A stretch of 64,000 nt of DNA from an uncultured Bacteroidota bacterium (GTDB lineage: Bacteria > Bacteroidota > Bacteroidia > Bacteroidales > DTGW01). The position numbers and the translations under genes are program-made. The stretch spans positions 66,416 through 130,415 of the forward strand of contig CAWEFA010000027.1 of the NCBI GenBank assembly GCA_963808135.1. The letters are read 5' to 3'. Of the stretch, positions 697 through 64,000 are shown piece by piece. Positions within the stretch are counted from its first letter, which is position 1, and each line of letters begins with the position of its first letter. The notes beneath the pieces are model-generated. The model had not been told where the DNA came from, did not search any database, and was given only the letters and a program-made list of their open reading frames with translations.

Positions 697-1381
697 TTAA
701 ATAAGTATAGCTAAATCATTATTCCATTTAAACATTAGCAATTTTATTGAATAAATCAACATATATTTTGCTTTTGTATAACATTTAGTTTTCCTTCTTA
801 ATCTTGCTAAGAAATGCCTGAAGAGACTATTATAGCCTTCTACTGTATATGTTTCTGCTTTTGTCTGAAACAATTGCTCTTTAGGTACAAATTCATTATA
901 AGCTTTCCAATAGTCGGCACATACTATTCCTTTGGAAAATTCTTCAATTTTATTCCAGAGCTTTTTCCCTGTTTCTGTTCCTCGTGTGCCAATTTCACAA
1001 TTGACGAACCTGTGCCCATTTCTATCAACAGCAATCCATATCCAGCAGTAGTTTTTTTTGAACCAATATATGTATGCATTTCATCCAATTCTACAACTTC
1101 AATTTCACCAGAATTTCTAAATTCATCTAGTTTTTCTCCAAAGGACTTTATCCAATTAAAAACAGCAACATGGCTTACATTTAAATATCGTCCTATTGAT
1201 CGAAACCCTAAACCTTCTAAATATAAAATCAATGCATTTCTTTTAAGGTTATTAGGCTTTCCTATTTGCTCAACAGTAAACTATGCTTGCAATCTTTACA
1301 TAAATATCGTTGCTTTGATTTAACTATACCATCTTTACGGAAATTTTTACTTTTACATTTTGGGCAGCTATCCATATTCAT
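697..1381 (-). mobile_element. IS1-family transposase gene, disrupted by two frameshifts
   Basis: Reverse strand from the ATG at 1381: MNMDSCPKCKSKNFRKDGIVKSKQRYLCKDCKHS (zinc finger). A shift at the A3 run 1278..1280 leads to FTVEQIGKPNNLKRNALILYLEGLGFRSIGRYLNVSHVAVFNWIKSFG...ELDEMHTYIGSKK. A shift in the T8 run 1052..1059 leads to NYCWIWIAVDRNGHRFVNCEIGTRGTETGKKLWNKIEEFSKGIVCADYWKAYNEFVPKEQLFQTKAETYTVEGYNSLFRHFLARLRRKTKCY, with the stop at 697. The layout and motifs are those of IS1-family transposases. I could not define convincing terminal inverted repeats. Confidence 0.8.
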
Positions 1382-1422
1382 TTCATTTAGGTTTATAACT
1401 GTACAAATATATAAAAACTATA

Positions 1423-2171
1423 CTAAATTAACAATACCCTTATTTTTTCGATAAACGGAATGAGCGTGTGGCCTTCGTAAATACTACCTTCATAAATATC
1501 GTAACCAATTGCATAGCCTCCAAGTCCAACAAGCAAACCAATGTAAATCTGTGGGCATTGGTGTTTGCCATCTTTACTAAATCCGGTTTTGCGCAGATCA
1601 TCCTCATCGCTTGCTTCAAAATACAACGTGGTCATGTCGTAAAATACAACACTGATTTTATTATTAAGAACTCTCAAAGTGTGATTAAATGCAATATTCT
1701 CAACCTGTGGCTTCAGTTTGTCGTTCAATTTGTCCAAAAAACGATATACAGCATCTATATCCAGGCTTGTTCCCTGATAACGGTATAAATAATTAATGGT
1801 TTTGAGCTTACTCAAAGGAAATGCCAGCCGGGCAATTACTAAATGACGGAAAAATTCGTCGTTAATAGCATTAAAGCCAATGTAATTATATATTTTCCCA
1901 AAGATTATTTCGGGTCCGAGAGTGCGGATGCTTGCGTTGTCCAATTTAGAGAAGGCTTGCTCAATAGTTGCATCGCCCTCGAATCCGAAAAGCTTTTGGG
2001 ATTACCACTAAGTCGCTCAATCTCTTGTCTGGCAAGGTGTACTAATTTTTCAATTTCCTGCTGCGTGGTGGCAGAACCTATTGTTTTAACTACTTTATAG
2101 CGTCCATTATGCTTCTGTATGACTTGAATACTAAAGCTCCCGGAAGAATTAGGTTTCTTTCTGATAAACAT
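1423..2171 (-). mobile_element. IS1634-type (IS4 superfamily) transposase, N-terminal part only, frameshifted and 3'-truncated
   Basis: ORFs 1905..2171 ([33 protein letters not shown]) and 1423..1944 (LGPEIIFGKIYNYIGF ... VVFYDMTTLYFEASDEDDLRKTGFSKDGKHQCPQIYIGLLV) match the conserved N-terminal third of IS1634-type transposases. The two frames join at the A4 run 1988..1991. The frame ends at ~1440, where the IS1-like segment begins, and the DDE part is missing. A 9-bp inverted repeat GGGACACCC/GGGTGTCCC lies at 2184..2192 and 2232..2240. Confidence 0.65.
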
Positions 2172-2240
2172 ACTTTAAAATTCGGGACACCCAAATTAAA
2201 AATACTTTTCAATATTTACAAGGGTTTCATAGGGTGTCCC

Positions 2241-2420
2241 AAAAAAGTGCGGAAAACAGGAAAAGAAACACTTATTGACTCATCAAAGCATTTGGTTTTA
2301 AAAACTGCCCATCCTTCGCCGTATTCTGTAACTTATGGATTCTTTGGCTGCCGTCATTTTTCGAAAACCAATCAATATCTTGAGGAACATGGGCTAAAAC
2401 CTATCGACTGGCAATTATAA
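2241..2420 (+). pseudogene. ung: Uracil-DNA glycosylase, 3' remnant
   Basis: [59 protein letters not shown] is the C-terminal ~55 residues of family-1 UDG (the HPSPLS-motif region). The catalytic N-terminal part is absent and is replaced by the IS1634-like segment. Confidence 0.7.
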
Positions 2421-2449
2421 ATTATGAAGCCCTAAACCTTAATGCTTCC

Positions 2450-3116
2450 TTACTGGTTGGCAATTGCATTGTTTAGGAACTTATTGAATGGCACAAGCGC
2501 AGTAAAAACTTCAGTTATTTCATCCATGAGACGGTTATCGTGAAGCATTTGAAAGGGAACATCTTTGGCAACCGAATAATTTTTAAATTTTAAGTATTCG
2601 ATATAAGGAAAACCGGCAGGAAAATCTTTAGGTGGTTTTTTCAGCTTTTGGTCATCGTCGATGTTGCCGAAATGTTTTACAAAAGTTGGCTTTTGAACTA
2701 TTTCAAGAAACTCGTCGATATTTTCATAAATTTCCAATCGTAATTTTTTTAAAATTTCCGGCATAGGCATATAAATGCCTCCGGCAAGCATATTCAACCC
2801 AGGTTCGATATGAAAATAATAACCTGCAAAACCGCTTTTCCTACCGCCTTTGACCATATAAGCGCCAAAATTTACTTTATAGGGCGTTTTGTCGTTTGAA
2901 AATCTTGTATCGCGATAAATACGAAAAGTGCAATCTTTTGGCTCGAGATAAGCAATATCTCTATCAATATTCCCGAAAACAGCAATTATTTTAGCAGTGA
3001 AATTCTCAAATTCTTTTTTTGCTTCGTCGTACCAGTTTTTGTTTTTTTGAAACCACTCCCGATTTGTTGTTTTCTTTTAACTGCTCAAGAAAATCGGTAA
3101 GTCTTTTACTTATCAT
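2450..3116 (-). CDS. DUF2461 (TIGR02453-type) protein with one frameshift near the 5' end
   Basis: ORF 2450..2857 continues upstream in the same frame as TNREWFQKNKNWYDEAKKEFENF...FRIYRDTRFSNDKTPYKVNFGAYMVKGGRKSGFAGYYFHIEPG. The start MISKRLTDFLEQLKENN (ATG at 3116) is in another frame. The join maps to the T3 run 3063..3065. Confidence 0.7.
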
Positions 3117-3143: not shown

Positions 3144-5633
3144 TTATTCCTGCCAGAAGCAGCAGTAAATTACTAAAATAGAACTGGCATTAGCAACTTT
3201 CCGGCCAATGTAATACGATTTAGGTTCAAATTTAAATTCTATTTAATGACTACCGGAAGGTATAATCATTGACCTTAAAATATAATCGGCCCTTCCATAG
3301 GGTGCAGGATTGCCGTCAATGTATGCATTCCAGCCTTTGTCATAAAATATCTCCGAAAATACAGCCAATTGCGGATTTTTTTTAACAATCCGACCGGTAC
3401 TCAAGGCGCGCCGGTGCATAAGAAAGTAATTTAATATTTGCACTGCTGTCAAATTTTAATGTTTCAATTCCCGGTAGTTTTGTTTCAAACCGTTTATCAA
3501 TAATCGCTGTTTGTTTGGGGTTGAATTCATTTACTGCCGCCAACGCCCATCGGCATTTTTTACCCATTTAACTTCCTTAACAAACCAGGCATTGCCCATA
3601 GCAGAAGTATTAATTAAAGGGTTTGCATCAGAATTATAAATAATGTATTTGGTGTTTAACATATTTAGAATTGACAAATCTTTAAAAACCTTATCGAGAT
3701 TTTCAATTGTAACCTTTGACCGAAGCGCTGAACCGAGTTTAGAAATATCCCTGGAAAGCGGGCCATCAATCAAATCCTGGTACCTGCGCATTTTTGCGCC
3801 ATGATAACCACCAATAGATTTATGAAAATATGGGGTATAAGCATCGGCAAACACACCCCTGGTAAGGTTTAAAACCCTGTAATCGAGATCATATCCTTCA
3901 AAATTATTTCATCAGTCGTAGTTTTCACAAACTGGTTCTGGTATTCCGTTTTCGTTACGAAATTTTCTTTATTAATATAGCGACGGTCAACTCCCCACAA
4001 GTCAACCAATATTAAAATGCACAACCCTGATGAAAACAAAACAGGTTTTATCTTTTTTAAAGCAAATCCCCAGATCAGCCCGGCTGAAAGCAAAACAAAT
4101 ACGAGCGACCGGAAAGAATCGGCCCGGAGTATCGATTGCCTGTCCATTTGCATTGCCGATATAAGGTTATTTATTATGTCTTCAGGCCATTTAGCCGATT
4201 TTAATTGTTCAATTAGTCCGGAATCCTGACTGCTGCTGAAATTAAAAAACCATCCGGAAATTAAAATAAATATCAGCAATATCCCTCCGACAATCCCAAG
4301 AGAATATTTTAAAGCTTTTACAGTTTCTTCTTTATTAATTTTCTCATCAAACACTTCTTTTAAGGCAAAGAAACCTAATAATGGAAAAGCAAAATTTGCA
4401 ATTACAAGAATCATTTCAACAGTCCGGAATTTGTTGTATCCGGGGAAATAATAGAAAAACAGGTCGGTGACTAATGTAAAATTTTTGCCCCACGCAAGTA
4501 CAATTGACAAAATTGCTGCTGACAAAAGCCACCATTTTTTAGCGCCTTTAACTATAAAGAGTCCAAATACAAACAAAAAGCAAATTATAGCGCCAAAATA
4601 TTTAGGGCCGGAAGTAGAAATCAAATCACCCCAATATACCGGCAAACTGGCTGCAATACGAACCGCATCCTGCGCCCCCGCCTTTTGAAGTTCTTCAGCA
4701 GTCCTTGAATCTTCTTTGAATCCATTTACCCCGGCGCCCATTAAATTCGGGACCAAAACAGAAAATGTTTCAGAAATGCCGTAGCTCCATTGCAGCGCAT
4801 AATCTTTATCAAGCCCTCATGATTCTTTTTCCCCGCTTTTTAAAATATGCTCCGACTTGCCCCTTATGCTGTATTTGCCGTATTCGTAAGTTGTCCATAA
4901 ATTTGTAATATTTGGCAGAATTGCCAGGACAACGGAAAAACAAAAATGGCGGAAACAATAAAGAAATGTTTTAGTTCTTTTATTTTAAATGTATAAATAA
5001 ATTTTACTATGAAAAGAACCAATATAGTCATAAAGCAGTAATATGCTATTTGCGGATGGCTAAAAGAAATTTCTAAACCTGTTGCAAAAACGGTAAACAA
5101 CCCACCCCAAAAATATTTTTTATCAAACAATAAAAGCACACCGGCAATAACCAAAGGCATCATGGATATTGCATAAGCCTGGGTAATATGCCCAACACTA
5201 ATTATAATTATATTGAACGATGCAAAAGCAAACCCGATAGCCCCTGCAATGCTTAAAATTTTATCAACCCTGAGGCTTATAAGAAGGATATAAAAACCAA
5301 GAAGCAATAAAAATAATATGGCTACTGTTGTGTAAGGCAAATGCAGGCTTATTTCCACTGAAGCCTGTGGAAAATATTAAATGACGGCGCTCCTTTTATT
5401 AAATAAGAAGGCATACCGCCAAACATTGAATTTGTCCAAAGTGGATGTTCGCCCGGATGTGCCTTTTCGTATTCGACTAATTCGTGCGACATACCTTTTG
5501 TGTGTGTATCGTCCATTTGCGGCAGGCTCTTTCCTGTTAATACAGGGCTGAAATAAGCATAGCTTAAAATTACGAACCCAACAATTATAAATATGTGCGG
5601 AACCAGCGGCCTAAAAATGTTTTTCAAATCCAT
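3144..5633 (-). pseudogene. YfhO-family polytopic membrane protein (GT-C-like), fragmented
   Basis: Six consecutive reverse ORFs (5349..5633, 4864..5358, 3869..4756, 3531..3854, 3382..3567, 3243..3452) change frame at every junction. There is also an in-frame TAA at 3243..3245, after which the same frame continues IEFKFEPKSYYIGRKVANASSILVIYCCFWQE* to 3144. The N-terminus (PLWTNSMFGGMPSYLI) is typical of Bacteroidota YfhO proteins. Confidence 0.75.
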
Positions 5634-6249: not shown

Positions 6250-7824
6250 TTTCGAAAGTATTATTTATTCCCCACAAAAAAATCGAATAAAAAAAGGTGG
6301 TAAAAGTTAAGCCCACTTGATTTTCAATGGCATCTTCGTTAATGAACGATAAAAAGATGACAATAAAAATCATAACAAAATAATAGAAGTTCCATTTCTT
6401 TTCAAGCACTGGCGGAACAATAAATGCAAGAATTATAAGAATGAAACCGATAATACCGAAATGAATCATAAAACGAAGATATTGATTGTGCGATTCTCTT
6501 TGAAAATGCTTTTCCAACCCGGTATCATGCGTTTTATAATAGTTTTCAAAAGCTTTTTTGGCATCGCCGGTGCCAAGCCCAAAAAGAGATTTTTCTTAAT
6601 TATACTTAATGACATTTTAATATAAACAAGCCTTTGAACTACAGAATGGCCGCTAACGCTTCCATTGTTCATGTAATCGTCAACTTCCCCAACAACTTCA
6701 TATATGCGCGGATAAATACTGCCCATTTTGGCAAAAATTTTATTTGCCATACCTTTTTCAACATTTCTAATATCTCTATTCGTCATCTTCCATATACCTG
6801 CAGAATCTTTTCTCAATCCCATAGAAGTTAAATATCTTATCAGCGTATATTTTATAGGTTGGTTTCTTAAATCGTTATTATTAAAAAATATTTTGCTGCG
6901 TTTGTTCCATTCACGTTCCAATTCAACCGGACAATAATAAAGCCATACATAATGGCCATTTTCCCTACTGTTGTTTAATGTGTCATTAATGTATGGGTTC
7001 CCATTAACGGTATATTTTTCGAGTTTGTTAAAATCAATCTTATCTTTTGCATAAAAATCGTGTACTACTGAAAAAATATATCCGGTTGCAAAAATTGGCG
7101 CCATTATCAATGCCAATATTATTCCTGTTTTTGCATACCGGTTTTTTACCTGGTTCATATTAATAATAATCAAAATAAAAGTTGATATAAACAGAATAGA
7201 AATTCCGGTAAGTGATTTTAACAGAAATAAGAAATAAATAAGCCATATTGCAGATATTGTATAAACCAAATGAAGCCGGTTATACGAAGGGAAACCTTTA
7301 ACCAGCCAGTACAAGAGGATATGAATGCCAACAACAACCATTAACGAAAGCCTGATGTGAGAAATAAAAATTGAAATTTCCCTTACGTCGCTAAATTTTA
7401 TTGGAATAATGCCAAAAAATATCAAAGCGCTGAAAAGAGTTGAGAAAATAACTGCAAGGATAAAAATGTGCATTATCAGTCTAAACTTTTTAACAGGTAT
7501 TGGCTCCGATGTTCCAATAATTACAGGTAGAATAATAAGCGGCAATTTTAGGAAAAGGTTTATAAATCCGAGATTTGTTTCGGAAGTGCCGAACATCCAT
7601 ATAATATGGACAACGTATATGGTTAAAAAAATCAGGATACTTTTCCGGCGATACAGGATTTTCAGCTTCTGTGGCAGGTTCCCTTCAAGCAGCCAGTTTA
7701 ATATCAGCAATATCTGGCTTATAACCAGGAATTGCCTGTAATATAGTAATGATACAGCCAGCAATGCCAAAAGCCAAAAATAAATATCACGGCTGTAAAG
7801 CCTATATTGTTTCAGAAAGCCCAT
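6227..7824 (-). CDS. O-antigen-ligase-like (Wzy_C-type) polytopic membrane protein with one frameshift
   Basis: Built from ORFs 6466..7824 and 6227..6517, with many TM helices. Shifting frame near 6572..6577 restores NLFLGLGTGDAKKAFENYYKTHDTGLEKHFQRESHNQYLRFMIHFGIIG, the GxGxG ... HNxYL ... GiiG pattern of O-antigen ligase family proteins. Confidence 0.6.
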
Positions 7825-11296: not shown

Positions 11297-13081
11297 TTAT
11301 TTTACATAATAATAGCGCAAAATTTCATTATCTCCCGTTTGCAATGTAAATTCATAATTATTGTTTGATAAAGATAAAACATTCATTGGAAAATTACCAT
11401 TAACAGGAAATCCTTTTACAATTTTTCTTTCTTTTTCAACCATGTAAACCTTATCCGATAATGACGAGCCGATAAAAATTGTTGTAATGCCTTTTTTTGA
11501 TTTCACGATAACAGGCTTCTGGTCAATCAGGCTGTCGGTTTGTATTGAAAAAATATTTTTCTTTTGCTGGTTGAATGCGTTTACAACATTTTTATCTGTA
11601 AACAAATAATCTTTCAGGCCATCGCCGTCAAAATCGACAAATGAGAAATTATGATTTTTTGTAAAATCGGCAAGCCTTATTTTTTCTATATGCCCGTCAG
11701 GATAAATAAAACAGGCCTGACCTGAAGTATCGGTTGTTACGATACGAAAAAAATTAGGCTTTTCGTCAATGAAAAATTCATTTTTTACTGATTTGAAAAA
11801 TGGTTGCTTTAACTTCAACTGCTGCTCGCCTTTTCGGTTCAAGAGGTTAACATTATTTGAGTCGGAAAAAAGGATGTAATCTTTCTTATGGTAAGTAAAA
11901 CATTGGGCTGGTTCTTTTAAAATATTAACTGTTTTTTCGAACTTCCAGCCATCAGCCTTATGGCCATCTTTTGTTAAAGCCACAAAGCTTTTATTTTTAA
12001 ATGCAATGTAATACCTGTAATTCAGGTTATGGTCAAAATCGGCTAATGCCAATCCATTTGTGGCAGTTTGCTTAAACTTCACCGGGAAACCGTTAATGTT
12101 ATTACCGTTTTTGTCAATTATGAAAAGGTTCTCGGCAGTATTAAAAAGCAACTGGTATTTGTTATTATTAAAATAATCTATTATAAATGTCGAACTTAGA
12201 ATTCTTTCGCCTAACGGACGCTTCCAAATTATTTTACCTGCCGACGAAATGAGATATATGTTTAGTTTTTTATCCTGAATGAAGAAAAGGTTTTTGTAAG
12301 CATCTTGATTGGTTATTAATGCTGTTGAACTCTCAACGGAACTATCCAATTTAATTGTCCATGCTAATTCCGGGCCAATGTAAGGCGTTACATCATTGTA
12401 AAGAAAAATATTATTATAATTAAATTCCCCGTTTCCCGAAACCTGGATTCCCGCAATTGTGCTTGTTTCCGCCCTGAACAGGTTTTTTTCAAACATACTT
12501 TTAATTTTCGGGTCGATAAATTTATTTATAAAATTCCAGGTTGAAGGGAAATTAAAAAATAGCGTCAGGTTTGATTTAGAAGCTAATGTGTTTGAAGCTA
12601 TATTCCGGTATAATGAATCGTTGATAATTGATTTGTTCGCATTTAATTCCGAAAGATAATTATCAAGCGCTTCTTCCGATTCTCCAAAAACCAAGTATTG
12701 TTTGAAATTACAAACGCTGGGATATTTGGCGCAACTAAAAACTTTACCAAATAATGCCGTAGGCAATTCATTGTCGGGCAACGCATGGACCATTGATTTT
12801 TCCTGGATGCTATCAGCGCTATTAATAGTATTTGAATCATAGAAAACCGGCTTTTCATGCTTATCTTTAATTAAACTTTTAATAAAATCAAGCGCATCAG
12901 GGTAACTTTTTGTCCTTACAATGCAATACATACTGTATTTTCCATCTTTTCCCAAACATCCGTTCAAAGTAAAAGACCCATCCATGATGTTGAATAATTT
13001 GTCGCCGATATTGTTTCCAAACTTTTGGTTTAAATTTTTAAGGTTTTCAGCCAATGTTTTATTATTTCGGCATGCTCTCAT
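11297..13081 (-). CDS. Large envelope protein, C-terminal part (FG-GAP/VCBS-like motif); probably one gene with 13062..14036
   Basis: 594 aa with no signal peptide of its own. It contains FVDFDGDGLKDYLF (FG-GAP/VCBS-type Ca-binding loop) and repeated beta-strand-like segments. It overlaps the upstream ORF by 20 nt in another frame. Confidence 0.5.
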   Translation of the reverse strand: MRACRNNKTLAENLKNLNQKFGNNIGDKLFNIMDGSFTLNGCLGKDGKYSMYCIVRTKSYPDALDFIKSLIKDKHEKPVFYDSNTINSADSIQEKSMVHALPDNELPTALFGKVFSCAKYPSVCNFKQYLVFGESEEALDNYLSELNANKSIINDSLYRNIASNTLASKSNLTLFFNFPSTWNFINKFIDPKIKSMFEKNLFRAETSTIAGIQVSGNGEFNYNNIFLYNDVTPYIGPELAWTIKLDSSVESSTALITNQDAYKNLFFIQDKKLNIYLISSAGKIIWKRPLGERILSSTFIIDYFNNNKYQLLFNTAENLFIIDKNGNNINGFPVKFKQTATNGLALADFDHNLNYRYYIAFKNKSFVALTKDGHKADGWKFEKTVNILKEPAQCFTYHKKDYILFSDSNNVNLLNRKGEQQLKLKQPFFKSVKNEFFIDEKPNFFRIVTTDTSGQACFIYPDGHIEKIRLADFTKNHNFSFVDFDGDGLKDYLFTDKNVVNAFNQQKKNIFSIQTDSLIDQKPVIVKSKKGITTIFIGSSLSDKVYMVEKERKIVKGFPVNGNFPMNVLSLSNNNYEFTLQTGDNEILRYYYVK

Positions 13082-22005: not shown

Positions 22006-22781
22006 TTATTTGATATTAAAATATATCAATAAAGCCAGTGTAAATGACGCTATTGAGAAAAGCATAGTGTATGGAAATTTATCAAATGCAAATGATTTTG
22101 CTGTCCGCGGTTCCACGTATAAAATATCATTAGGCATCAGGTAGTAATAATCGCTTTGAAGAATATCCTTATTTGATAAGTCAAGGATAATTACATCAGA
22201 ACCTTTTAAAGTTTGGCGGACCAATTTTACTTTTTTTATATTTGCAAAATCCTTAAACCCGCCCGCCATTCCAACAGCCTGGAGAATATTTACCTGATCT
22301 TTGTTTATGGTAAAATTACCCGGTGAATTTACTTCCCCCAATACCGCAACCTGGTAATCTATTAACCTTACAACTACAGTGGCTTCTTTAAAATAATCAT
22401 TAATGGCTTTTTGCATTTGGTTTTTTATTTCTTCAACTGTTAATCCTTTAACATACATTTTATCAATAAAAGAATAGCTAATGTAGCCTTGCTCGTCGAC
22501 CATATAGCTGTTCAAATACATGTATGTCTCGTTCATCAACGAGGGGAGATCGGTTTGAAAAAGTTTGCTGGTTTTTGGGTCGGTACTGTACACTCTAATA
22601 TAAAGGTGATCGCCGGTTTGAATATGATAGGTTGTTTTTTTGCTATTTTCGAAATTACTTATCGTTTCTTTCGATGGTCCTGAATTAATCTAAGGCGCTT
22701 TTGAGAAATACATGAACTTGTTAAGGAAGCGACTAATAAAATAAAATAAATGAGTAATGAATGAATGAAATGGCTTTTCAT
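22006..22781 (-). CDS. Wza-like polysaccharide export outer-membrane lipoprotein with one frameshift
   Basis: ORF 22006..22593 extends upstream in frame to INSGPSKETISNFENSKKTTYHIQTGDHLYIRVYS and shows VAVLGEVNSPGNF and ILQAVGMAGG (Poly_export/SLBB pattern). The lipoprotein signal MKSHFIHSLLIYFILLVASLTSSC starts at the ATG at 22781 in another frame. The join lies within ~22660..22690. Confidence 0.75.
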
Positions 22782-32804: not shown

Positions 32805-33588
32805 ATGAACATCATTTCACCTAATGCCAAAATTGGACTTAATGTCCGTTTTGGATCAAATTTAGTTATCGGAGACAATGTAGTTATTCAAGATTATGTT
32901 GAAATTGGTAATAATACAATAGTTAATAATACTTTGATTGGAAGTGGGACAATCATTGAATCAAACTGTATTATCGGATATTCAAAAGTGTCCGGATGGG
33001 TTTCAAGAGAATCTGAAAACATTGAAATTAAACTAGAGAATCTTGTAATTGGTAATAATTGTTTAATACGCGAAGGAGCAACTCTATATATGGGCTCAAA
33101 ATTAGGTAATTCCATTAAAATTAATCACAAAGCTTTAATAAGAGCTAATGCAATTATTGGAGATTTTACTTCTATTGGTTCTATGACAGAATTAGACGGC
33201 GACTTGTCGATTGGGGAACATTGCTCAATACATTCCCAAAATCATATTTGTAGTAATACTACAATTCAGGATTATGTATTTATTGCTCCTTTTTGCGTAA
33301 CTGCTGAAGGAGACCCAATGACGTTTTATAGACCACAACTTTATCAATTAAAAGGTCCTGAAACTGGACCTTTTATTGAAAGCGGTTGTCAAATTGGAGT
33401 CAACGTTGTACTATATCCTAGAAATTCGCCTTGGTCATGAATGTATAGTCGGTTCAAGTGCAGTGGTAACTAAATCCTTTGAACCATTATCTATTCTATC
33501 TGGTTGTCCTGCTAAAAGAGTTGCTGATGTTAAAGATTTATTTAGATTACCTTTGGAAATTAGAAAAAAAATTGGTATTGAAAAGTAA
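32805..33588 (+). CDS. Hexapeptide-repeat acyltransferase, split by one frameshift
   Basis: Built from ORFs 32805..33440 and 33376..33588, with hexapeptide repeats throughout. Dropping one A from the A3 run 33422..33424 restores GCQIGVNVVLYPRIRLGHECIVGSSAVVTKSF...SGCPAKRV. Confidence 0.7.
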
Positions 33589-39796: not shown

Positions 39797-41102
39797 ATGG
39801 GCAAATCACAGGAATTATATTTACGGGCAAAGAAAATTATTCCCGGGGGCACACAGCTTCTTTCCAAAAGGCCGGAGATGTTTTTACCGGATCAATGGCC
39901 GGCTTATTATAACAGGGCAAAGGGTTGTGAAATTTGGGATTTGGATGGGAAACATTACTACGATATGGGCCTCATGGGAGTTGGTGCAAATGTTTTAGGT
40001 TATGCTAATGATGAAGTTGACACTGCTGTAATAAAAGCTATTAAATCCGGAACAAATAGCACTTTGAATTGCCCGGAAGAAATAAAATTGGCTGAAATGC
40101 TTTGTTCAATTCATCCCTGGGCAGAGATGGTCAGGTATGCACGTACCGGCGGCGAGGCAATGACTATAGCAGTAAGAATAGCCAGGGCCAAAACCGGCAA
40201 GAGTAAAATATTATTTTGCGGGTATCATGGTTGGCATGATTGGTATTTAACGGCCAATCTTTCGGAAGATAAATTAAAACATGGCCATTTACTCCCGGGA
40301 CTTGAACCGAACGGGGTTCCTGTTGAATTGTTAAATACATCTACTACATTTCAATACAATAATACTGAAGAATTTCTTCGGAAACTTTCGGAGAATAACG
40401 ATCAAATAGCTTGTGTTGTAATGGAGTCGGTTCGTAACTTTGAACCCGAAAAGGAATTCTTAAATACGCTAAGGAATGAAACCAGGGAAACGGGGAATCA
40501 TTTTAATAATCGATGAAATAACTGCAGGGTTTCGGCTCAATATGGGAGGGGCTCATTTAAGGTACAACCTGGAACCCGACATTGCAGTTTTCGGCAAGGC
40601 TATGAGCAACGGATATCCAATGGCGGCAATTATTGGAAAACGTTTTGTAATGGAAGCGGCTCAAAATTCTTTTATCAGCAGCTTATTTTGGACAGAAAAA
40701 ATTGGGCCGGTCGCTTCAATAACAACAATTGAAATTATGCAGGATCCAAAGATTTTTCAGACAATAAAATCAAATGGTGAAAAAATTTCAAATGGGTTAA
40801 AAAAGGCAGCTGACGAAACAAATATTGAATTATCTATAACCGGCAATCCTGCCATTTTGGGTTTTTCAATACAACATCAAAATCCTTTGGTAGTAAAAAC
40901 CTACTTCATCCAGGAACTCTTAAAAAAAGAATTTATCAGTACTTTTGCATATTATTCATCAATTTCCCATACTGATGCGATTATAAATAATTATTTGGGC
41001 GAAGTAAAATCCGTGTTCAAAAAAATAAAAGAAAACTTTGATATTCTTGAGAAACTTTTAGAAGGCGCCGTTTGTCATGCAGGTTTTAAAAGATTAACGT
41101 GA
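39797..41102 (+). CDS. Class-III PLP aminotransferase (glutamate-1-semialdehyde aminomutase-like), split by one frameshift
   Basis: Built from ORFs 39797..40516 and 40476..41102. Motifs seen are GGTQLLSKRPE and GYHGWHDW. The second ORF starts RGIILIIDEITAGFR and contains FGKAMSNGYP (PLP lysine). The frames must join inside the 40476..40516 overlap, plausibly at the G3/A3 runs 40485..40490. Confidence 0.75.
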
Positions 41103-44524: not shown

Positions 44525-45199
44525 ATCCCGAGATATCAAAGCACAATAAACGACCTTCTTAGTTTAAATGTCAGCTCGTATTGCGAACTTGGCCCGGGAG
44601 AAGGTTCTGTTGCAATAGGTTTAAAAAAAGCCGGGAAGAATGTAGTTTGCCTGGAAGCCCCGTGGGATTTTGATAAAAGGACTTCCTGGGGCAAAGAGAA
44701 CAATATTAAAATTTATAAAGGGGAATTTTTCTCAACGGATTTCTCAAAAATAATTGAAGAAGAAATCGAATGTTTTTCATTAATTCATGCTATTGCCCAC
44801 CTAAGGTTTCCGCCTCACCTGATACTTGAAAAAGCATTTAAAAAATTGAAGCCGGGAGGTTATTTTTATCTTTCTACTGTAAATGCAGGATCGCTTGACA
44901 AAGTAATAAAACTGGCTAAAGGACAAGCCATAACCGATGAAGTGAAGAAATTTGTTGAAATGGGAGAGGATTATAAAAAATACTGCAACCCTTCAGGAAA
45001 ATATATGATTTGGGATAGCTGGATGCACGTTAAAGAATACAGGGCATTTGAATTAAAAAAGATATTTGAAGAAGAGAACTTCAAAGTTATTAAGCTCTTT
45101 CACCGGAATAATTTTAAAAATTGGGAAAATGATATTATTTGTAAAATTTGGCCGCACCTCTCCGAAGAAATAATTATAGTTGGTAAAAAAAATGATTAG
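44521..45199 (+). CDS. SAM-dependent methyltransferase with an early frameshift
   Basis: The frame of ORF 44846..45199 is open back to 44525 and reads YCELGPGEGSVAIGLKKAGKNVVCLE...LKPGGYFYLSTVN (motifs I and II). It has no ATG in that frame. An ATG at 44521 (ATGA overlap with the neuB-like stop) is in the neighbouring frame and stops after 13 codons. The join lies within 44524..44560. Confidence 0.55.
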
Positions 45200-49820: not shown

Positions 49821-50621
49821 ATGAAAAAAATATTAAAGAAAATATTAACGATAATTTTAGGTGATTATCTTGTATTCCTAATTGCAAAGCTAAAAAGGAA
49901 ATATATTCCGAGTAAAGAGCAAAAGGAAATAATCAGAAATGAATTAGAAGAGATCAATAGAAGAAAGTTGTTTTATAGTTCTTTTGTCAAAAAAAATGAT
50001 TTGTGTTTTGATGTTGGAGCTAATATAGGAAATAGAGTTAGTCCTCTTTTGGAACTTGGGGCAAAAGTTGTAGCTGTTGAGCCACAAGAAAGTTGCTACA
50101 AGATTTTAAAATTAAAATTTGGCAAAAAGATTGAAATTGTTAAAAATGGTTTAGGGGAAAGTGAATGTATAAAAGATTTTCACATATCAAATGCTGACGT
50201 ATTATCATCTTTTTCAGAAGAATGGATTAATTCTGTTAAGGACTTTCGTTTTAAAGAGTACAATTGGGATAAGGTCATAAAAGTTGAAATGACAACTCTT
50301 GATAAACTGATTGAGAAATATGGCCTGCCAATATTTATTAAAATTGATGTTGAGGGTTACGAGTTAGATGTTTTGAAAGGTTTAACAAAACCTATAAGAA
50401 TGATTAGTTTTGAATTTACTGTTCCTGAACAAATCAATAGAATTATCGAGTGTATTGAGCAAATAGAAAAAAATGATACAAATATTGAGTGTAATTACAG
50501 TATTGGTGAAAGTATGATTTTTGCATTACCATCATGGCAATCAGTGGAAGAGATGAGAAAACATATAATTCCTGAAAGAAATTATGGATATTGGTCATGG
50601 GTTTGGAGACATTTATGTTAG
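49821..50621 (+). CDS. FkbM-family methyltransferase
   Basis: 266 aa with FDVGANIGNRVSPLLELGAKVVAVEP and IKIDVEGYELDVLKG. A neighbouring frame reads EIMDIGHGFGDIYVRIKNYH* to 50640, which looks like the usual family C-terminus. This suggests another A-run frameshift near 50570..50582 (low confidence). Confidence 0.75.
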   Translation: MKKILKKILTIILGDYLVFLIAKLKRKYIPSKEQKEIIRNELEEINRRKLFYSSFVKKNDLCFDVGANIGNRVSPLLELGAKVVAVEPQESCYKILKLKFGKKIEIVKNGLGESECIKDFHISNADVLSSFSEEWINSVKDFRFKEYNWDKVIKVEMTTLDKLIEKYGLPIFIKIDVEGYELDVLKGLTKPIRMISFEFTVPEQINRIIECIEQIEKNDTNIECNYSIGESMIFALPSWQSVEEMRKHIIPERNYGYWSWVWRHLC

Positions 50622-50873
50622 AATTAAAAACTATCACTAACAGTGGCTTATAAGAATTATATGTTAAAAGCAAGAAAAAATTAAGCTGCTTTAAAATAAA
50701 TTTTTTTTGAACGACATTCTCTTTTATTTTCTGTTATCAAAGGCAGGGTATGTTTGGGCATATTAAAAATCTATAATTGTGAATATTTCAATGAAATTAA
50801 ACAACCTCTTAGGTGTTATTGATGATTCTGAAAATTTTTTAGAGAGGTTTGGTTTATAAGTAAAATGATATAA

Positions 50874-50957
50874 TGAGAATTTCAGCAATTATTCCTTGTT
50901 ATAATGTCGAAAATTATATTGAAGAACCTGTTAAATCATTAATAAACCAAACGTAAT
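50874..50957 (+). pseudogene. GT2 glycosyltransferase 5' stub (copy 2)
   Basis: MRISAIIPCYNVENYIEEPVKSLINQT followed by TAA TAG. This is 27 codons of a GT2 N-terminus and then nothing. Confidence 0.65.
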
Positions 50958-56594: not shown

Positions 56595-57772
56595 ATGAAA
56601 ATATTATATTACTCGCCTCACCCGTTTTTAAATCTTTCATCACCTTCCGGCTATGGAACCCATATACGCGAAATGATTAATGCATTTCGTGAAACAGGCC
56701 ATGTTGTTGAATCGCTTATAATGGGTGGAGAAGTAATCGTAAATAATGATTTGTCCATTAAAATTAAAAAGAACCCAATAAAAAAATTCATCCCGTCTAT
56801 ATTGTGGGAAACCATTAAAGATTTAAGATTAATATTTCACGACAGGAAAGCCCAACGTTTGCTATGCCAAAAAGTAATTGACTATAAACCGGATGTTATA
56901 TATGAAAGAGGATATTATATGACGATCTCCGGAATAAGAATTGCTAAAAAATTTAATTTATGTCATATCCTTGAAATGAATGCACCATTTCCTGAAGAAA
57001 GAAAAAGCATGGAAGGTTTGTCATTGCTTGGTTTTTTAGCAAAAAGAAGAGAACATATTCAAATTAAAGAAACATCCCATTTAGTGGTAGTTTCATCAGC
57101 TTTGAAATCATATTTCAAAAAAAAATTTGGGGATTACTTAACAAACATCATGATAATGCCGAACGCAATTAACCCTAAACAATAAATGTAAATAAAGATG
57201 AGGTTAAAAGTATCAGAAAGCAGATTTCTATAAATGAAAATGAAACGATTATTGGCTTTGTTGGTTCAATATTTCCTTATCACGGCGTTGATATATTATT
57301 AGATAGTTTTTGCAAACTACAGAAAACGAATCAAAATCTAAGGCTTTTAATTGTCGGCGATGGTGAATCACTGCCTAAGCTAAAGGAACAAGCTGTAAAA
57401 TCAGGCATCAATACAAAAGTTATTTTTACCGGGAATATTCAACATTCGCAGGTATGGAATTATATTTCTTTAATGGACATTTGTGTTATGGCCCGTTCTA
57501 ATTGGTACGGCTCGCCAATAAAAATATTCGAATACGGGGCATTGGGAAAGGCTATTATTGCGCCGGATAATATACCTGTGAATGATGTAATGATCCATAA
57601 CGAGGACGGCTTGCTTATAAGTAACGATTTATTTAAGCTTAGCTATGCCCTGTTAACGCTGTTGAATGATAAAGAAAAAAGAGAAATTTTAGGTAAAACT
57701 TTTCAAAAAAAAGTGCTAAATGAGCATACCTGGATAAATAATGCCAGGGTAATTCTAAATTCAGTTAAATGA
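56595..57772 (+). CDS. GT4 glycosyltransferase, split by one frameshift
   Basis: ORF 56595..57185 reads MKILYYSPHP...GYGTHIREM. The frame open from 57186 reads NVNKDEVKSIRKQISINENETIIGFVGSIFPYHGVDILL...LLIVGDGE...GSPIKIFEYGALGKAIIAPD, ending at 57772. Adding one A at 57181..57182 (CAATAAAT to CAAATAAAT) joins them. Confidence 0.8.
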
Positions 57773-58890: not shown

Positions 58891-59571
58891 TAGTTGGAAA
58901 CGGACTAATTGCCCAAACACTTCATGATCTTGATGACGATGAAAACACTATAATTTTTGCTTCGGGTGTTTCGAATTCATCAGAAAGTGATGAGGAAGCT
59001 TTTAACCGTGAAGTTAATCTTCTTTTGTCATTTATTTCCGGGAGAAAAAAAATCGTATATTTCAGCACATGCAGCATTTTCGATGATTGTTTGAAAAATT
59101 CTCTTTATATACAACACAAAATTAATATTGAAAACTTAATTCAAAAAAACTTTAATAATTACCTTATTTTAAGATTGCCTACGTTAGTAAGCAATTCAAA
59201 CAATCCGAATACTTTTTTCAATTATTTTAGGGATAAAATAAAAAATAATCTCCCTTTATATGTGCAAAAAAATGCTTACAGATATTCTGTTAGATGCTGA
59301 AGATTTAAAATTTATAGTTCCGGGTTTGCTAAAAAAATATCATAGTGAAAATAAAATATTGAACATAGCCTATTCTAATGCAATTGCAGTAAGTGAGATT
59401 GTAAAAATCATGGAAACTAAATTAAACATAAAAGCAAATGTCAATTTTCTTGAAATTGGGAATTTCTTTACTTTTGATAATAGCGAATTTTTAATGTTTT
59501 TGAAGAATGAAAATATCTGTTATGATACAAACTATGTGGAAAAAGTAATAAATAAATATATTGTTAGCTGA
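58887..59571 (+). CDS. Rossmann-fold sugar-nucleotide epimerase/reductase-like protein, split by one frameshift
   Basis: Built from ORFs 58887..59300 and 59260..59571. Removing one A from the A7 run 59266..59272 gives LPLYVQKMLTDILLDAEDL and joins the frames. The family call is weak because no clean GxxGxxG motif is present. Confidence 0.4.
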
Positions 59572-59626: not shown

Positions 59627-61161
59627 ATGATTAAGCAAATATTAGGGAAGAAACGATTGTTTGAAATTGAAAATAAGTTTTTGTGGCTATCTGTCGCAAT
59701 TGCTTTCAGGCTTATTATATGCCTGTTCTTTGTTTATCAAAGCAATATTTATTTGAAAGACAGGCTTAATAGTGGTTTTGTAATAATTTCCAATGATTAT
59801 GGCCAACTTCTCAGGCCTGTGGACAATTTTTTTAAAACCGGGGTTTATGAAGTTAGGGAAGGTTCCGGGTTGCCTTATGCCGGGCGTTTACACTTGGTTA
59901 TAGCTTTCCATATATGTTATTAAGGTTTGTTTTTAGTAAAAATATAGGCTTGTCTTTATTAATAATCTGGCAGTTTTTATTTTCAGCTCTTTCCGTATAT
60001 TACCTGGCAAAATGTATTTATTTGTTAACGAATAAAAAATCACTGTTTTTAATTGGTTTCTTTTCATATTTATTCTTTTCATATATCATTCAAGGGGATT
60101 TATGGACTTTACCCGAAAGTTTTTCTGTTTCGGCTTATATTTTTCATTTGTATTTTTTTATTCGATTCTGGAAAGAAAATAAAAACAAAAATTTAATTAT
60201 TTCAGGAGGATTTTTAACCTGGGCTATCTTCCTCAGGGGATTTTTGCTTACTTATCTGATCTCTTCAACAATTATACTTCTTTGGCTTTTATATAAAATG
60301 GGATTGAAATTAAAACTGGCAGCAATAAAATTAATGTTATTCTTTTTGCCATTTATAATAGCAGAGTCTATTTGGATAACTAGGAATTATATGTTGCTAC
60401 ACCAGTTTATCCCTTTGCAAACAATATTTGTTCCAGGCCAAAAAATTGATGCAAATGTCGATTATAAAGGCAGATATAAAAATTCAGTCCTTGCATTAAG
60501 AAAACTGGTTGTGTCGTGGGGTGGTAACGCCGTTGACTACTATCCAGACTCTGAGACGGGATGGTTTTTATCAGAAGTAAGAAAGCAGGGAGGCAATACT
60601 TTCCCTTTTCCAAATAAAATCTTTTTTACAGGGTTTACTAAAGATTCAGTTTACGAACTAAAACATTTAATTACTATATCATTTAAAGATACGTTTCCGG
60701 TAAAAGAACACTTAAGAATTGAAAATTTGATCATCAATAAATCAATGAGCTATATTTCAAAGATCAGGCAACAAAAGCCATTTATTTATTATTTTGAGAG
60801 CAGGGTTAAAAGAATAAAAAACTTTTTATTACAAAGCGTTGTTTCAAACTGGCCTGGGCCCCCCTTTAGGAATTCATCTTTGCTTTATAAATTTTATAAA
60901 CTATGCACATTATTTTTTTATTATTTAATTCTGAGTTTAAGCTTCTTTGCTTTAATTTATCAATTGCTTTTTAACAGACGTTTGGAAATAGGTTGGTATT
61001 TGTCTCTTAATTTTTTTATATTGCTAGTTACTTTCTCATATTTAATTGAGTCAGCAGAAAATAAATACTTTTTAACGGGTTTCATTAATGCATTCATTTT
61101 ATCTTATATAATGTTCCCTTTAATAATGAACCGATTCAGAAAAGATAATAAAAACTATTAA
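59627..61161 (+). CDS. Second GT-C-like polytopic membrane protein (ArnT/PMT-like), split by one frameshift
   Basis: Built from ORFs 59627..59923 and 59914..61161. Adding one T to the T3 run 59887..59889 gives PYAGRFTLGYSFPYMLLRFVFS and joins the frames. There are many TM helices. Confidence 0.5.
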
Positions 61162-61853: not shown

Positions 61854-62342
61854 TTGACCGTAGATCACGATGCCGAATCCGGTGCGCGGGTTTGTTTCTA
61901 TGATGTGGCATGGTCGAATTAACCCCGCTGGCGATGTGGGCGCAATGGGGTGTTCTCCCAAAGTGGTGGCCGCCGGCAATGGCTGGCACGCCGCAACGGA
62001 GCGCGAGGACGTCGACTCGCAGCGGCACGCCAGATCGGACGCCGTGGATGATTTCAAGCGATTCGGTCTGGCCACCGGCTGCGGGCCGAACCTCGGCCTG
62101 GCATTGGGACAATCCGCTCGTCGGCAAATGGTGGCCCTGACGCAGTCCGTGGCCAGATTCAGCTTCAATTCCGCACTCCGCATTCCGAAATCATCGTCTG
62201 ACCGGCACGCCGCAAGGAGTTGGGGAATGGCGGGGCAACGAATCCTGGTGCCAAAGTTCAATTCACTGACTTTTTCTCGCTGATTTTATCGGCTCGGTAT
62301 ATTCTGGCAAGGGATGCGGCGCGCGGGTTTGCAGCTCATTGA

Positions 62343-62516
62343 AGCTTGTGGCAGGAAGGGTTTGGCACGTTTAGCATCGGCGTGTCAGGCGTAGAAGATA
62401 TGATTCATTATATTCAGACGCAGGAGGAACATCACCGGAAGAAAAGTTTCCGCGAGGAGTTGGAAGTTTTTCTCAAGAAGCACGGATATGACTACAAGGC
62501 GGAGATGTTGGATTGA
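62343..62516 (+). pseudogene. IS200/RayT-like (Y1) transposase, C-terminal remnant
   Basis: SLWQEGFGTFSIGVSGVEDMIHYIQTQEEHHRKKSFREELEVFLKKHGYDYKAEMLD* matches the conserved tail (WQ.GYgaFSvs......v..YI.NQ..HH....F..E) of REP-associated tyrosine transposases. A TGA lies immediately upstream at 62340..62342 and the N-terminal HUH part is absent. Confidence 0.7.
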
Positions 62517-62755
62517 AGTTCTTTCGTCCCTTTGGGACTTAATGATATGTTGATGACGTTTAACCCTGCCATAAATGGCTGGGCTATTTTCAACGAAGTC
62601 AGCCTCACCGCCGGCCGCGTCATGGCCAAACGCCGAGCGAGGTTTGCGGCCTGCCGGAAAGCAAACCGCTCTGGCGCGCGGGACGCGGCTTCGTCGTCCG
62701 CGACCTGCCGTGAACGGTTGTCCCCTGCCGCTGGCCGCAAACCAGCAAACCAGCA

Positions 62756-62786
62756 TTGACAGAATCAGACTTGGAAACTACATAAT
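62756..62786 (+). promoter_or_regulatory. Possible sigma-70-type promoter for the NRPS gene
   Basis: TTGACA lies at 62756..62761, with TACATA after a 17-nt spacer or CATAAT at 62781..62786 after a 19-nt spacer. A GAGGG Shine-Dalgarno sequence sits 7 nt before the ATG at 62816. Confidence 0.25.
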
Positions 62787-62815
62787 CTCCCGGTCAAGCT
62801 CAAAGAGGGCGCGTC

Positions 62816-64000
62816 ATGAATCATTTTGGCAACGTCAGCAACGAACAGGGCGGAGTGAAAACACCTTTCCCATGCGGTCGCTCGGTTGTGGACTTTCTTC
62901 GTGAAATCGTCCGGGCGCAGCCCAATTTGCCGGCCGTCAAAGATGCTGGCCGGACCATGACGCATGAGGAGCTGGACTTGAGATCGAATCTCGTGGCCGA
63001 TCGCCTCAAGCGGTGCGGGCTTCATTTGGAAGAGCCGGTCGCCATATTGATTCCTGCGTCGGGCGAATATGTCGTGGCGATGCTTGGCATCCTCAAGGCG
63101 GGCGGCGCTTATGTGCCACTGGATCCAAACGTGCCGGTTCGGCGGCTGGAATTTTTGCTGCAAGACAGCGGCAGCCGGTTCGCCTTGACCGATGCGGCGG
63201 GCACCAAACGGATCGGCGGATGGTCAGGCACGACCTTGGATCTGGCGGCCATCATCGGCCAGCCCGGCCCGGAGGCTCACAAAATTTCCGGCGTTCCTTC
63301 CGACCCCAATCGCCGGGCATACATCATCTATACCTCGGGTTCGACCGGGCAGCCCAAGGGCGTGGAGATTGAACATCATTCGCTGACGAACCTCGTCTGT
63401 GCCTATCACGAAAGATTTAATCTGAGCGCGCGAGATCGCTCCACGCTGTTTGCCAATGTCGCTTTTGACGCCTCGGTGGCGGATGTCTGGCCGACGCTTT
63501 GCGCCAGCGGCTGTCTGGTCGTCCCACCCAGGGAACTGATCCAGCATCCGGACTGTTTGATCGCCTGGCTGGCGGACGAGGAAATCACTTGGACGTTTGT
63601 GCCGACCGGCCTGGCGGAAATTTTGTTTGACCGCGTGTGGCCGGCGCAGGTGGCACTGCGCTTTCTGATGACCGGTGGCGACCGGCTGCGGGTCCGCCCG
63701 CCGCAAAATTTGCCCTTCACCGTGCTGAATGCCTATGGCCCGACTGAAAACACGGTGATCAGCACCTGGTCAGTGCTCAAAGCACAAAATGACAATTCGC
63801 AATTGCCTGCCATCGGCCGCCCCATTGCCAACGTGCAAACCTTTGTGCTGGACGAACACGGCCAACCCGTTGCCGATGGTGTGGCCGGCGAGCTTTATCT
63901 GGGTGGTGAACAGGTTGCGCGCGGCTATCTTGGCCAACCCGCGCTGAGACCGCAGAACGCTTTGTCTCCAATCCATTCACCGGATTGCCGGAGGCCCGGA
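62816..64000 (+). CDS. Non-ribosomal peptide synthetase, N-terminal adenylation domain (open at the right edge)
   Basis: Not in the ORF track because no stop occurs before the window end. An upstream in-frame TAA lies at 62783..62785. My translation from the ATG at 62816 contains LKAGGAYVPLDP (A2), AYIIYTSGSTGQPKGV (A3, 63317..63361), FDASV (A4), NAYGPTE (A5, from 63728) and GELYLGGEQVARGYL (A6). Confidence 0.85.
   Translation, partial: MNHFGNVSNEQGGVKTPFPCGRSVVDFLREIVRAQPNLPAVKDAGRTMTHEELDLRSNLVADRLKRCGLHLEEPVAILIPASGEYVVAMLGILKAGGAYVPLDPNVPVRRLEFLLQDSGSRFALTDAAGTKRIGGWSGTTLDLAAIIGQPGPEAHKISGVPSDPNRRAYIIYTSGSTGQPKGVEIEHHSLTNLVCAYHERFNLSARDRSTLFANVAFDASVADVWPTLCASGCLVVPPRELIQHPDCLIAWLADEEITWTFVPTGLAEILFDRVWPAQVALRFLMTGGDRLRVRPPQNLPFTVLNAYGPTENTVISTWSVLKAQNDNSQLPAIGRPIANVQTFVLDEHGQPVADGVAGELYLGGEQVARGYLGQPALRPQNALSPIHSPDCRRPG

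Follow-up and report, generated by a model that had tools for sequence, protein, structure and literature searches.

The window, a stretch of 64,000 nucleotides, appears to be part of a draft metagenome-assembled genome (159 contigs, 86% complete) of a free-living-type, Marinilabiliales-like Bacteroidota. We found 21 frame changes and two in-frame stops in it, at or near the coordinates given by the sequence-only reading, which had claimed about twenty scattered reading-frame breaks; each was re-derived from the sequence and is real in it. The breaks were checked by the continuity of Pfam profiles, frameshift-aware alignment to intact orthologs, comparison with other copies within the genome and three-frame reading; below, 'one base extra' or 'one base missing' is measured against the intact reading frame. 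Comparison with orthologous loci of relatives, suggested in the same reading as a check, placed breaks in YfhO, the DUF2461 gene, an O-antigen-ligase-like gene, the gene at 13062-13081 and wza.

The insertion-sequence corner of the window contains the remnant of an IS1634-like transposase (1423..2174, minus strand), which is cut off by an IS1 insertion, the left end of IS1 abutting its coding sequence. The remnant shares 96% DNA identity over 798 nt with an intact 509-aa copy on another contig (C31), with a single gap at ~1998, where one base is missing; the proposed break is thus real, but it does not lie in the A4 run 1988..1991 to which it had been assigned. The uracil-DNA glycosylase gene ung is present as a C-terminal stub (2046..2420, plus strand), its N-terminal part being replaced by the insertion sequence. 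The stub has a weak Pfam UDG match restricted to profile positions 84-140 of 141, and its translation retains the HPSP...GFFG...PIDW tail. The likely order of events would be the replacement of the ung start by the IS1634-like transposase, followed by the insertion of IS1 into the latter.

The IS1-family element, which encodes a Zn ribbon, an HTH and a DDE_Tnp_IS1 domain, has two frame changes of its own. At an A8 run (1052..1059, minus strand), the step from the Zn-ribbon/HTH part to the DDE part involves a -1 change of frame. The site is identical (GGTTCAAAAAAAACTAC) in six out of six copies from two subfamilies, the -1 frame change is common to every copy, and dN/dS between the subfamilies is 0.03 upstream of the run and 0.07 downstream. 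Because the site is conserved in all copies and both frames are under purifying selection, it is predicted to be a programmed -1 frameshift, made by the ribosome or through transcriptional slippage, and not a lesion, and its listing as a break (as T8) does not stand. The IS1 element of E. coli uses a programmed -1 frameshift (InsA/InsAB') at an A6C motif, and the element described here is similar both in its domains and in dropping one frame at an A-run kept in every copy. The two differ in the run, which is A8 rather than A6C, and in its position: the A8 run is not placed ahead of the catalytic DDE domain, where InsA and InsB meet, but ~10 residues past the first catalytic Asp (after ..ELDEMHTYIGSKK and before N..), just beyond the motif ELDEM. 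The second frame change (1276..1282, minus strand) is copy-specific, with one base missing at ~1279 between the Zn ribbon and the HTH; the sequence reads AGTTT here and AG(A/G)TTT, in one frame, in four other copies, and in a further copy (C96a) 5 nt are missing from this position.

The YfhO gene (3243..5633, minus strand) carries five frameshifts (at ~5359, 4937, 3891, 3547 and 3387) and two stops (TGA at 4817-4819 and TAA at ~3243). Frameshift-aware alignment recovers 534 of 858 columns identical to the intact 854-aa ortholog in the finished same-family genome G007, and the frame is open over 757-881 aa in 18 of the 19 relatives with a match; no near-identical intact YfhO copy was found in the protein collection. 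Seven lesions in 2.1 kb, two of them stops, are far above the background rate, and YfhO is probably a dead gene. Lesion clusters alone are no proof of biology, since the essential mrdA gene has a comparable local cluster (eight events in about 600 nt). A GT2 glycosyltransferase is reduced to a 30-aa N-terminal stub (50864..50953, plus strand), MRISAIIPCYNVENYIEEPVKSLINQT, which is ended by two stops and has the character of a structural remnant; its continuation was sought in all frames and none was found. Together, YfhO, the insertion sequences with their nesting and truncation, the shortened ung and the GT2 stub probably represent real damage. The YfhO, insertion-sequence and ung corner is best regarded as biological because base errors cannot make a nested insertion, a truncation and in-frame stops, in agreement with the earlier suggestion that part of the damage is biological.

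The other genes carry single breaks, several of which were located by orthologs. The DUF2461 gene (3063..3065, minus strand) has one base extra at ~3065 in the alignment to a 222-aa ortholog from the same-genus draft genome G001 (74% identity), and the downstream frame covers positions 12-208 of the 208-position Pfam profile. In the O-antigen-ligase-like gene (6572..6596, minus strand) one base is missing: residues 2-445 and 412-531 of the 532-aa G001 ortholog match two different frames, the second of which contains the Wzy_C tail. The overlap at 13062..13081 (minus strand), already suspected, is a true break with one base extra at ~13073, which splits a ~920-aa gene into 328 + 594 aa; in its homologs an uninterrupted frame of 889-996 aa is read (G001, 913 aa; G007, 919 aa), and the two frames here correspond to residues 3-323 and 323-913 of the G001 protein. 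The wza gene (22662..22689, minus strand) is missing one base at ~22675, as placed by alignment to its G001 ortholog, between the lipoprotein signal peptide and the Poly_export domain; Pfam assigns Poly_export and SLBB domains to the downstream frame. In a GT4 glycosyltransferase (57179..57185, plus strand) one base is missing, and Pfam finds Glyco_transf_4 and then Glycos_transf_1 in two frames.

Four further breaks, all on the plus strand, were checked by three-frame reading, and two of them (in the Rossmann-fold and GT-C genes) also against homolog lengths. A hexapeptide acyltransferase has one base extra at 33422..33424. A Rossmann-fold protein resembling NDP-sugar epimerases/reductases has one base extra at or near an A7 run (59266..59272), and its read-through product matches hundreds of single-frame homologs of 220-240 aa with 99-100% coverage. 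A GT-C membrane transferase lacks one base at 59887..59889 and is encoded here as 98 + 415 aa, compared with 484-521 aa in its homologs. Finally, a nonribosomal peptide synthetase (NRPS) adenylation domain is broken at 63940..63949 in the GC-rich tail of the contig: AMP-binding profile positions 2-384 are in the first frame, where the protein reads ...VARGYLGQPAL, and it continues as TAERFVSNPF...LGGDSL...GYSWAG in another. The tail, foreign in composition, is thus likewise frame-broken. The composition jump within the contig, a trait shared with draft and long-read assemblies, suggests that it may be chimeric.

We compared the assembly with seven Logan contigs of run ERR11748453, which cover 35.6 kb at 99.85-100% identity; they come from a k-mer assembly of a run that contains this organism and are independent at least in that sense, although the only difference from the assembly may be the assembler. 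Of the 11 breaks with Logan evidence, seven are absent from the Logan contigs and four are reproduced. All seven absent breaks are single-base insertions in the assembly: four in the window (29446, 40485-7, 44532 and 50573/4) and three elsewhere (C78:10132, C124:118477 and C124:121537). The Logan product is intact and full-length in six cases, and at C124:121537 the reading frame runs unbroken as far as the contig extends. Two of the seven insertions occur in the same context, CGA[G]ATATC.

The four assembly-only breaks in the window, all on the plus strand, are artefacts of this assembly. In a GFO/IDH/MocA oxidoreductase (29446..29450), whose Pfam GFO_IDH_MocA N-terminal and C-terminal domains follow each other across the break, T5 replaces the T4 of Logan contig L059, which encodes an intact 333-aa protein; the difference is one extra T in the assembly. 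A class-III aminotransferase (40485..40487) has one extra G, its Pfam positions 10-223 and 222-355 of 403 being in two frames, and the Logan product is an intact 434-aa protein, identical apart from the break. A methyltransferase (44532..44532) has an extra G in CGA[G]ATATC; Logan contig L058 is without it and encodes an intact 225-aa protein. The FkbM methyltransferase break (50573..50574, one base extra near the C-terminus), listed as possible, is real: the Logan product has 272 aa and ends in ...GFGDIYVRIKNYH, which is in the other frame here, versus 266 aa in the assembly.

The four reproduced breaks, three of which are deletions, are those in the acyltransferase (33422; Logan contig L057 is identical to the window at the site), GT4 (57181; L060, 100% identity over 4340 nt including the site), wza (the 195-aa downstream fragment is also recorded from Logan) and trpD. 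The Logan contigs have differences of their own from the assembly, namely +CT at 33033 in L057 and seven substitutions, and thus are not error-free or not clonal. If ERR11748453 consists of accurate short reads, the four reproduced breaks would be real mutations, which would leave a real pseudogene load several-fold above that of the finished relative.

The disagreement between the assemblies could also reflect a strain mixture, in which the assemblers chose different real alleles, including frameshift alleles of polysaccharide genes that are dispensable. The assemblies do differ by paired substitutions and small indels, with about one difference site per 3.6 kb, and strain-to-strain variability is frequent at polysaccharide loci. 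However, gldM and aconitase also carry assembly-only frameshift alleles, and the alleles peculiar to the assembly are always broken, are always insertions and twice share the same 8-nt context, which argues for a process error rather than standing variation. We therefore regard a strain mixture as very unlikely.

Across the genome, an alignment of 324 kb with 316 conserved genes contains 38 frame junctions, in 32 of these genes, or about one per 8.5 kb, which supplies the genome-wide broken fraction that the sequence-only reading had suggested as a check. The same test on 204 kb of G007 gave two loci (about one per 100 kb), one of which is probably the programmed prfB shift, judging from its ~367-aa product with 92% identity. 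The broken genes include rho, mrdA, rodA, RNase E/G, RNase Z, aroC, pyrC and trpD, as well as aconitase, EF-G2, sodB, gldM and mutL, and splits were also seen in two class-I aminoacyl-tRNA synthetase-like genes. Most have a single lesion, with several in YfhO and perhaps mutL, and true stops are rare: the spectrum comprises 29 insertions and 20 deletions (49) versus about three convincing in-frame stops. The same-genus draft G001 is likewise insertion-rich (12 insertions versus 4 deletions).

These data bear on a real high pseudogene load, in which slippage mutations would have been fixed in a decaying genome under host restriction or relaxed selection. Pseudogenes accumulate in recently host-restricted bacteria such as Sodalis and Mycobacterium leprae, and the genome studied here resembles them in its insertion-sequence copies (IS1 in at least six), nested insertion, truncated genes (ung, with the GT2 stub left) and multi-lesion YfhO (five shifts and two stops); the four breaks reproduced in the second assembly point the same way. 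Unlike in these bacteria, essential genes are not spared. Conserved, probably essential genes are broken as often as others, and the sparing expected under decay was not seen across identity classes, the broken share being 10% at 35-50%, 9% at 50-65%, 12% at 65-80% and 8% at 80-100% identity. The intact rpoB and secA are compatible with a random process at the observed rate. Moreover, indels are about 16 times as frequent as nonsense codons, broken genes mostly have one lesion with normal ortholog identity on both sides of it, and seven breaks are missing from the second assembly. Nor is the genome smaller or more AT-rich than those of free-living relatives, as compared with the listed genomes of the family and sampled stretches of G007 and G001: its size of 3.5 Mb is within the family's 2.4-4.8 Mb, and the sampled stretches have a GC content of 0.32-0.37 versus ~0.33 in the AT-rich part of the window (0.31-0.43 in most contigs of this genome). 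Thus, of the two causes offered earlier, consensus error and real decay, the outline with some biological damage holds, but the AT-rich, host-restricted genome in decay does not, and we consider it highly improbable.

The breaks had been described as mostly at short homopolymers, which is not borne out: genome-wide, runs of three or fewer are found at 71% of events versus 78% of positions drawn at random from the genes concerned, and only runs of at least six are enriched (18% versus 4.6%). Six window sites could be resolved to the base, and two of them are in runs (T4/T5 and G2/G3); five of the seven base-resolved artefacts are outside any run. The classic homopolymer signature of sequencing error is not recovered either, as most of the verified artefacts are insertions outside homopolymers, often of G before A. 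A homopolymer-type error (454, Ion or older nanopore) was rejected because indels are not concentrated in runs, with only 18% at runs of at least six.

The run-length data also touch on a natural mutator, in which a mismatch-repair-deficient population with a broken mutL would have gained recent one-base deletions, with assembly-specific insertion artefacts on top. In line with this, mutL has three deletion events, two at A6 runs; runs of at least six are commoner among deletions (~6 of 20) than insertions (~4 of 29); and reproduced breaks are mostly deletions (3 of 4), whereas the assembly-only ones are insertions throughout (7 of 7). The mutL lesions may themselves be errors, however, as Logan contigs do not cover mutL; deletion events are mostly at runs of four or fewer, RNase Z, RNase E/G and sodB also carry deletion-type breaks, and the reproduced sites number only four. 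On balance, a mutator is unlikely. That the Logan-reproduced breaks (mostly one-base deletions, ~40% of all) are real, so that this would be a mutL-broken, free-living Bacteroidota with a several-fold raised load of recent frameshifts, some in housekeeping genes, is in our view unlikely.

The window's breaks are likely to be mostly consensus errors of the draft assembly, plus a few real features. The draft consensus would carry about one single-base indel per 4-9 kb, and the single breaks in the window would mostly be such errors. Several observations support this reading: 7 of 11 breaks are absent from the independent assembly, where the gene is unbroken; conservation and essentiality are no filter, with 8-12% broken in every identity class; the rate (one per 8.5 kb) is far above that of the finished relative (two loci in the 204 kb taken from G007); and indels greatly outnumber in-frame stops. 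The broken NRPS tail and the insertion-rich pattern of G001 also fit it. In draft or long-read metagenome assemblies, consensus errors of the indel type are known to split genes into adjacent frame fragments. The breaks described here are similar in being single-base indels at about 1e-4 per base over all gene classes, in the good conservation of both gene halves and in that neither a second assembly nor a finished relative has them. They differ from older nanopore consensus, where homopolymer deletions are typical, in that the verified errors are insertions, mostly outside homopolymers; the technology was possibly low-coverage long reads. The clearest class of errors would be the assembly-specific single-base insertions, often of G before A, and a second, smaller class, mostly one-base deletions shared with Logan, would reflect recent mutations that are real or else errors that the reads themselves contain. 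Real features atop this noise would include the predicted frameshift of the IS1-family element, the nested insertion at ung, the GT2 stub and the probably dead YfhO gene.

About 10% of the genes in this genome are thus unreliable as a basis for gene calls, pseudogene counts or pathway gaps, and the same probably applies to its same-genus relative G001. The insertion-only, context-biased class of errors (G inserted before A, and twice in CGA[G]ATATC) forms a recognizable signature that could be used to flag similar assemblies. For the biology of these Bacteroidota, a conserved A8 site of predicted frameshifting within the catalytic region of their IS1-family element is a small positive result.

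The reading-frame breaks that a sequence-only reading had listed in the window were all re-derived, and the total came to 21 frame changes and two in-frame stops. They were mapped by continuity of Pfam profiles, frameshift-aware protein-to-DNA alignment to intact orthologues and three-frame translation. Pfam profiles are continuous across the breaks in the class-III aminotransferase (profile positions 10-223, then 222-355 of 403), the GFO/IDH/MocA oxidoreductase (N-terminal domain, then C-terminal domain) and the GT4 gene (Glyco_transf_4, then Glycos_transf_1). For the small fragments (pieces of YfhO and of the IS1634-like transposase, the Rossmann and GT-C proteins) Pfam gave little, and orthologues were used. 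The breaks in the YfhO, DUF2461, O-antigen-ligase-like and wza genes and at 13062-13081 were located by frameshift-aware alignment, while those in the acyltransferase, Rossmann, GT-C and NRPS genes are evident in three-frame translation; for Rossmann and GT-C, homologue lengths also agree. The overlap at 13062-13081 is a true break in one gene of ~920 aa; homologues read without interruption over 889-996 aa, among them one of 913 aa in G001 (a draft genome of the same genus) and one of 919 aa in G007 (finished, in one contig, and of the same family). Two positions were revised: the IS1634-like break, previously placed in the A4 run at 1988-1991, is a missing base at ~1998, and the second IS1 break lies not at a run but at a base missing in AG[A]TTT. 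For database searches alone, the frames of two broken proteins were read through, X standing at each YfhO break and the Rossmann parts being fused directly; a collection of 5.8 billion proteins held no intact protein nearly identical to YfhO, GT-C or Rossmann.

With the putative programmed IS1 shift left out, the lesions are distributed as ~12 in the insertion-sequence corner (0.7-7.8 kb), two in 8-29 kb, where G001 orthologues all matched in a single frame save at those two sites, and nine in 29-64 kb. The window spans C27:66416-130415, and its protein relatives are Marinilabiliales-type Bacteroidota (e.g. Carboxylicivirga, Marinilabiliaceae). Most of the window, with its large polysaccharide locus, has a GC content of 29-37%, which jumps at ~61775 to ~58% and stays there through the last 15 kb of contig C27. 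From window 61700-64000 to the contig end (C27:128100-143106), the GC fraction passes from ~0.27-0.31 to 0.58-0.65 inside ~100 nt. An NRPS A-T-TE module is encoded in this tail along with an intact acetyl-CoA synthetase and further genes; either the contig is chimeric or foreign DNA was inserted here recently. What look like three in-frame stops in the tail were rejected as lesions: they belong to the normal end of the intact acetyl-CoA synthetase gene and the non-coding frames beyond it.

One listed site should not be counted as damage. The 'T8 run' of IS1, GGTTCAAAAAAAACTAC on the coding strand, is identical in six of six genome copies from two subfamilies, and the frame changes by -1 there in every copy. 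Between the subfamilies, dN/dS amounts to 0.03 upstream of the run and 0.07 downstream. As judged from these sequences, GGTTCAAAAAAAACTAC is predicted to be a programmed shift site like that of IS1, but located directly after the first catalytic Asp and not ahead of the DDE domain.

The genome-wide rate of frame breaks was estimated by running open reading frames from 787 kb of G007 and G001 against the whole draft genome under study (G000; 3.5 Mb, 159 contigs, 86% complete, 4.4% contamination). Since the nearest genome is only ~74% identical to it in DNA, relatives were compared at the protein level only. Frame splits were found for 32 of 316 well-matched probes (38 junctions in 324 kb aligned, ~1 per 8.5 kb). 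In the reverse test, 204 kb of G007 contained two split loci; one is probably the programmed prfB shift, as its product of ~367 aa, 92% identical, suggests. Scored in this way, 216 kb of G001 held 15 junctions (~1 per 14 kb; 12 insertions versus 4 deletions), and its frame-split conserved genes include those at C21:63929-64626 and C1:663-1087.

The broken share in G000 is similar across identity classes: 10% at 35-50%, 9% at 50-65%, 12% at 65-80% and 8% at 80-100%. Among the broken genes are those for transcription terminator Rho, PBP2/MrdA, RodA, RNase E/G, RNase Z, chorismate synthase, dihydroorotase, TrpD, aconitase, EF-G2, Fe-superoxide dismutase, GldM and MutL, as well as two class-I aminoacyl-tRNA synthetase-like genes. 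The rpoB and secA genes are intact, which is compatible with a random process at the observed rate. Thus, a tenth of genes are broken irrespective of their conservation, and the breaking process is not filtered by selection. In the essential mrdA gene (C34:59785-60391), eight indel events fall within ~600 nt, with identity to the orthologue dropping to 35% between them, a local burst of low-quality consensus sequence.

Localised events across the genome comprise 29 insertions and 20 deletions, and about three in-frame stops are convincing. Most asterisks in the alignments mark HSP ends that enter a shifted frame or pass the gene end. An alternative genetic code was rejected, as the in-frame 'stops' are of all three kinds, align with no consistent residue and lie mostly at HSP ends. 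Runs of at least six bases are found near 18% of events, compared with 4.6% of positions drawn at random from those segments. The breaks had been described as lying mostly at short homopolymers, yet runs of three or fewer account for 71% of events versus 78% by chance. This association is mostly coincidence, because A3 or T3 occurs in nearly every 10-nt stretch of such AT-rich DNA.

An independent view came from Logan contigs, a k-mer assembly of run ERR11748453, which holds the same organism. Exact-protein look-ups identified seven contigs covering 35.6 kb of G000 at 99.85-100% identity; look-ups of four window proteins gave no match, and a literature search found no paper naming the run. Four window breaks are missing from these contigs, in which the genes are intact: the oxidoreductase (T5 in the assembly versus T4), the aminotransferase (additional G at 40485-40487), the methyltransferase (additional G at 44532) and FkbM (additional base at 50573/4), a break earlier listed only as possible and now seen to be real in the assembly. 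Outside the window, the breaks in gldM, aconitase and a third gene are likewise missing. Each of the seven assembly-only differences is an insertion of a single base; in five the added base is a G preceding an A, and two lie in the context CGA[G]ATATC. A deterministic motif error at CGAATATC was rejected, with 153 unchanged copies versus three of CGAGATATC; the CGA[G]ATATC-type insertion is a context bias only.

Four other breaks are reproduced in the Logan contigs: the acyltransferase at 33422, GT4 at 57181 (in a contig 100% identical across 4340 nt), the wza downstream fragment and trpD. An intact trpD-like Logan product from SRR27370447 was discarded as same-strain evidence, since it belongs to another species (77% DNA identity). 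Deletions make up three of the four reproduced breaks, and the insertion-to-deletion ratio of 7:0 in the assembly-only class versus 1:3 in the shared class suggests, on small numbers, two processes. One Logan contig has an extra CT of its own at 33033. Three pairs of substitutions 1-3 nt apart (e.g. GTC versus ATG) separate the two assemblies, at window 29114-29116 and 29858-29859 and at C78:7696-7697; they reflect either variation between strains or miscalls that depend on context. The Logan contigs stop at a ~97-nt repeat (30538-30635) directly upstream of the DegT gene start, with at least 14 more copies at 87-97% identity on other G000 contigs and weaker copies in relatives.

The insertion class is therefore probably an artefact of how the G000 assembly was made. 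That G001 is insertion-rich too, and that the foreign-looking NRPS tail of high GC content is also frame-broken, agrees with a cause in the data or pipeline and not in one organism. Low-depth long reads would be in keeping with the size of the contigs, the bias to insertions and the change of composition within a contig. The breaks shared with Logan are either genuine or were already carried by the reads, and the platform of the run would bear on which. The proposal of a decaying, host-restricted genome is unsupported, as the breaks strike genes irrespective of conservation and seven of them are absent from the Logan contigs.

Beneath this error noise lie a few features that are probably real. 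The IS1 copy sits inside the IS1634-like transposase gene, which has an intact 509-aa sister on contig C31, and the IS1634-like element in turn directly adjoins what is left of ung, a C-terminal stub. A 30-aa GT2 stub lies at 50864-50953. At the window edge (3-433), a HipA-like N-terminal fragment adjoins a small XRE-type HTH gene and resembles a candidate toxin-antitoxin pair. For YfhO, the five shifts noted earlier were recovered exactly, but frameshift-aware alignment gave two in-frame stops instead of one. These seven lesions in 2.1 kb, with deletions as four of the five indels and two nonsense codons, form a spectrum unlike that of the assembly-only class. The YfhO frame is open over 757-881 aa in 18 of 19 relatives with a match; in G001 it spans 679 aa versus ~850 aa in other relatives. 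On balance we favor a real pseudogene by a modest degree, with the caveat that the mrdA cluster shows that local error bursts occur too.

The mutL gene (C25:46917-47323) has lost a single base at each of three sites, two of which are at A6 runs; if real, these deletions would make this lineage a mismatch-repair mutator. The G000 assembly requires polishing before any claims about pseudogenes or pathways are made for this organism.
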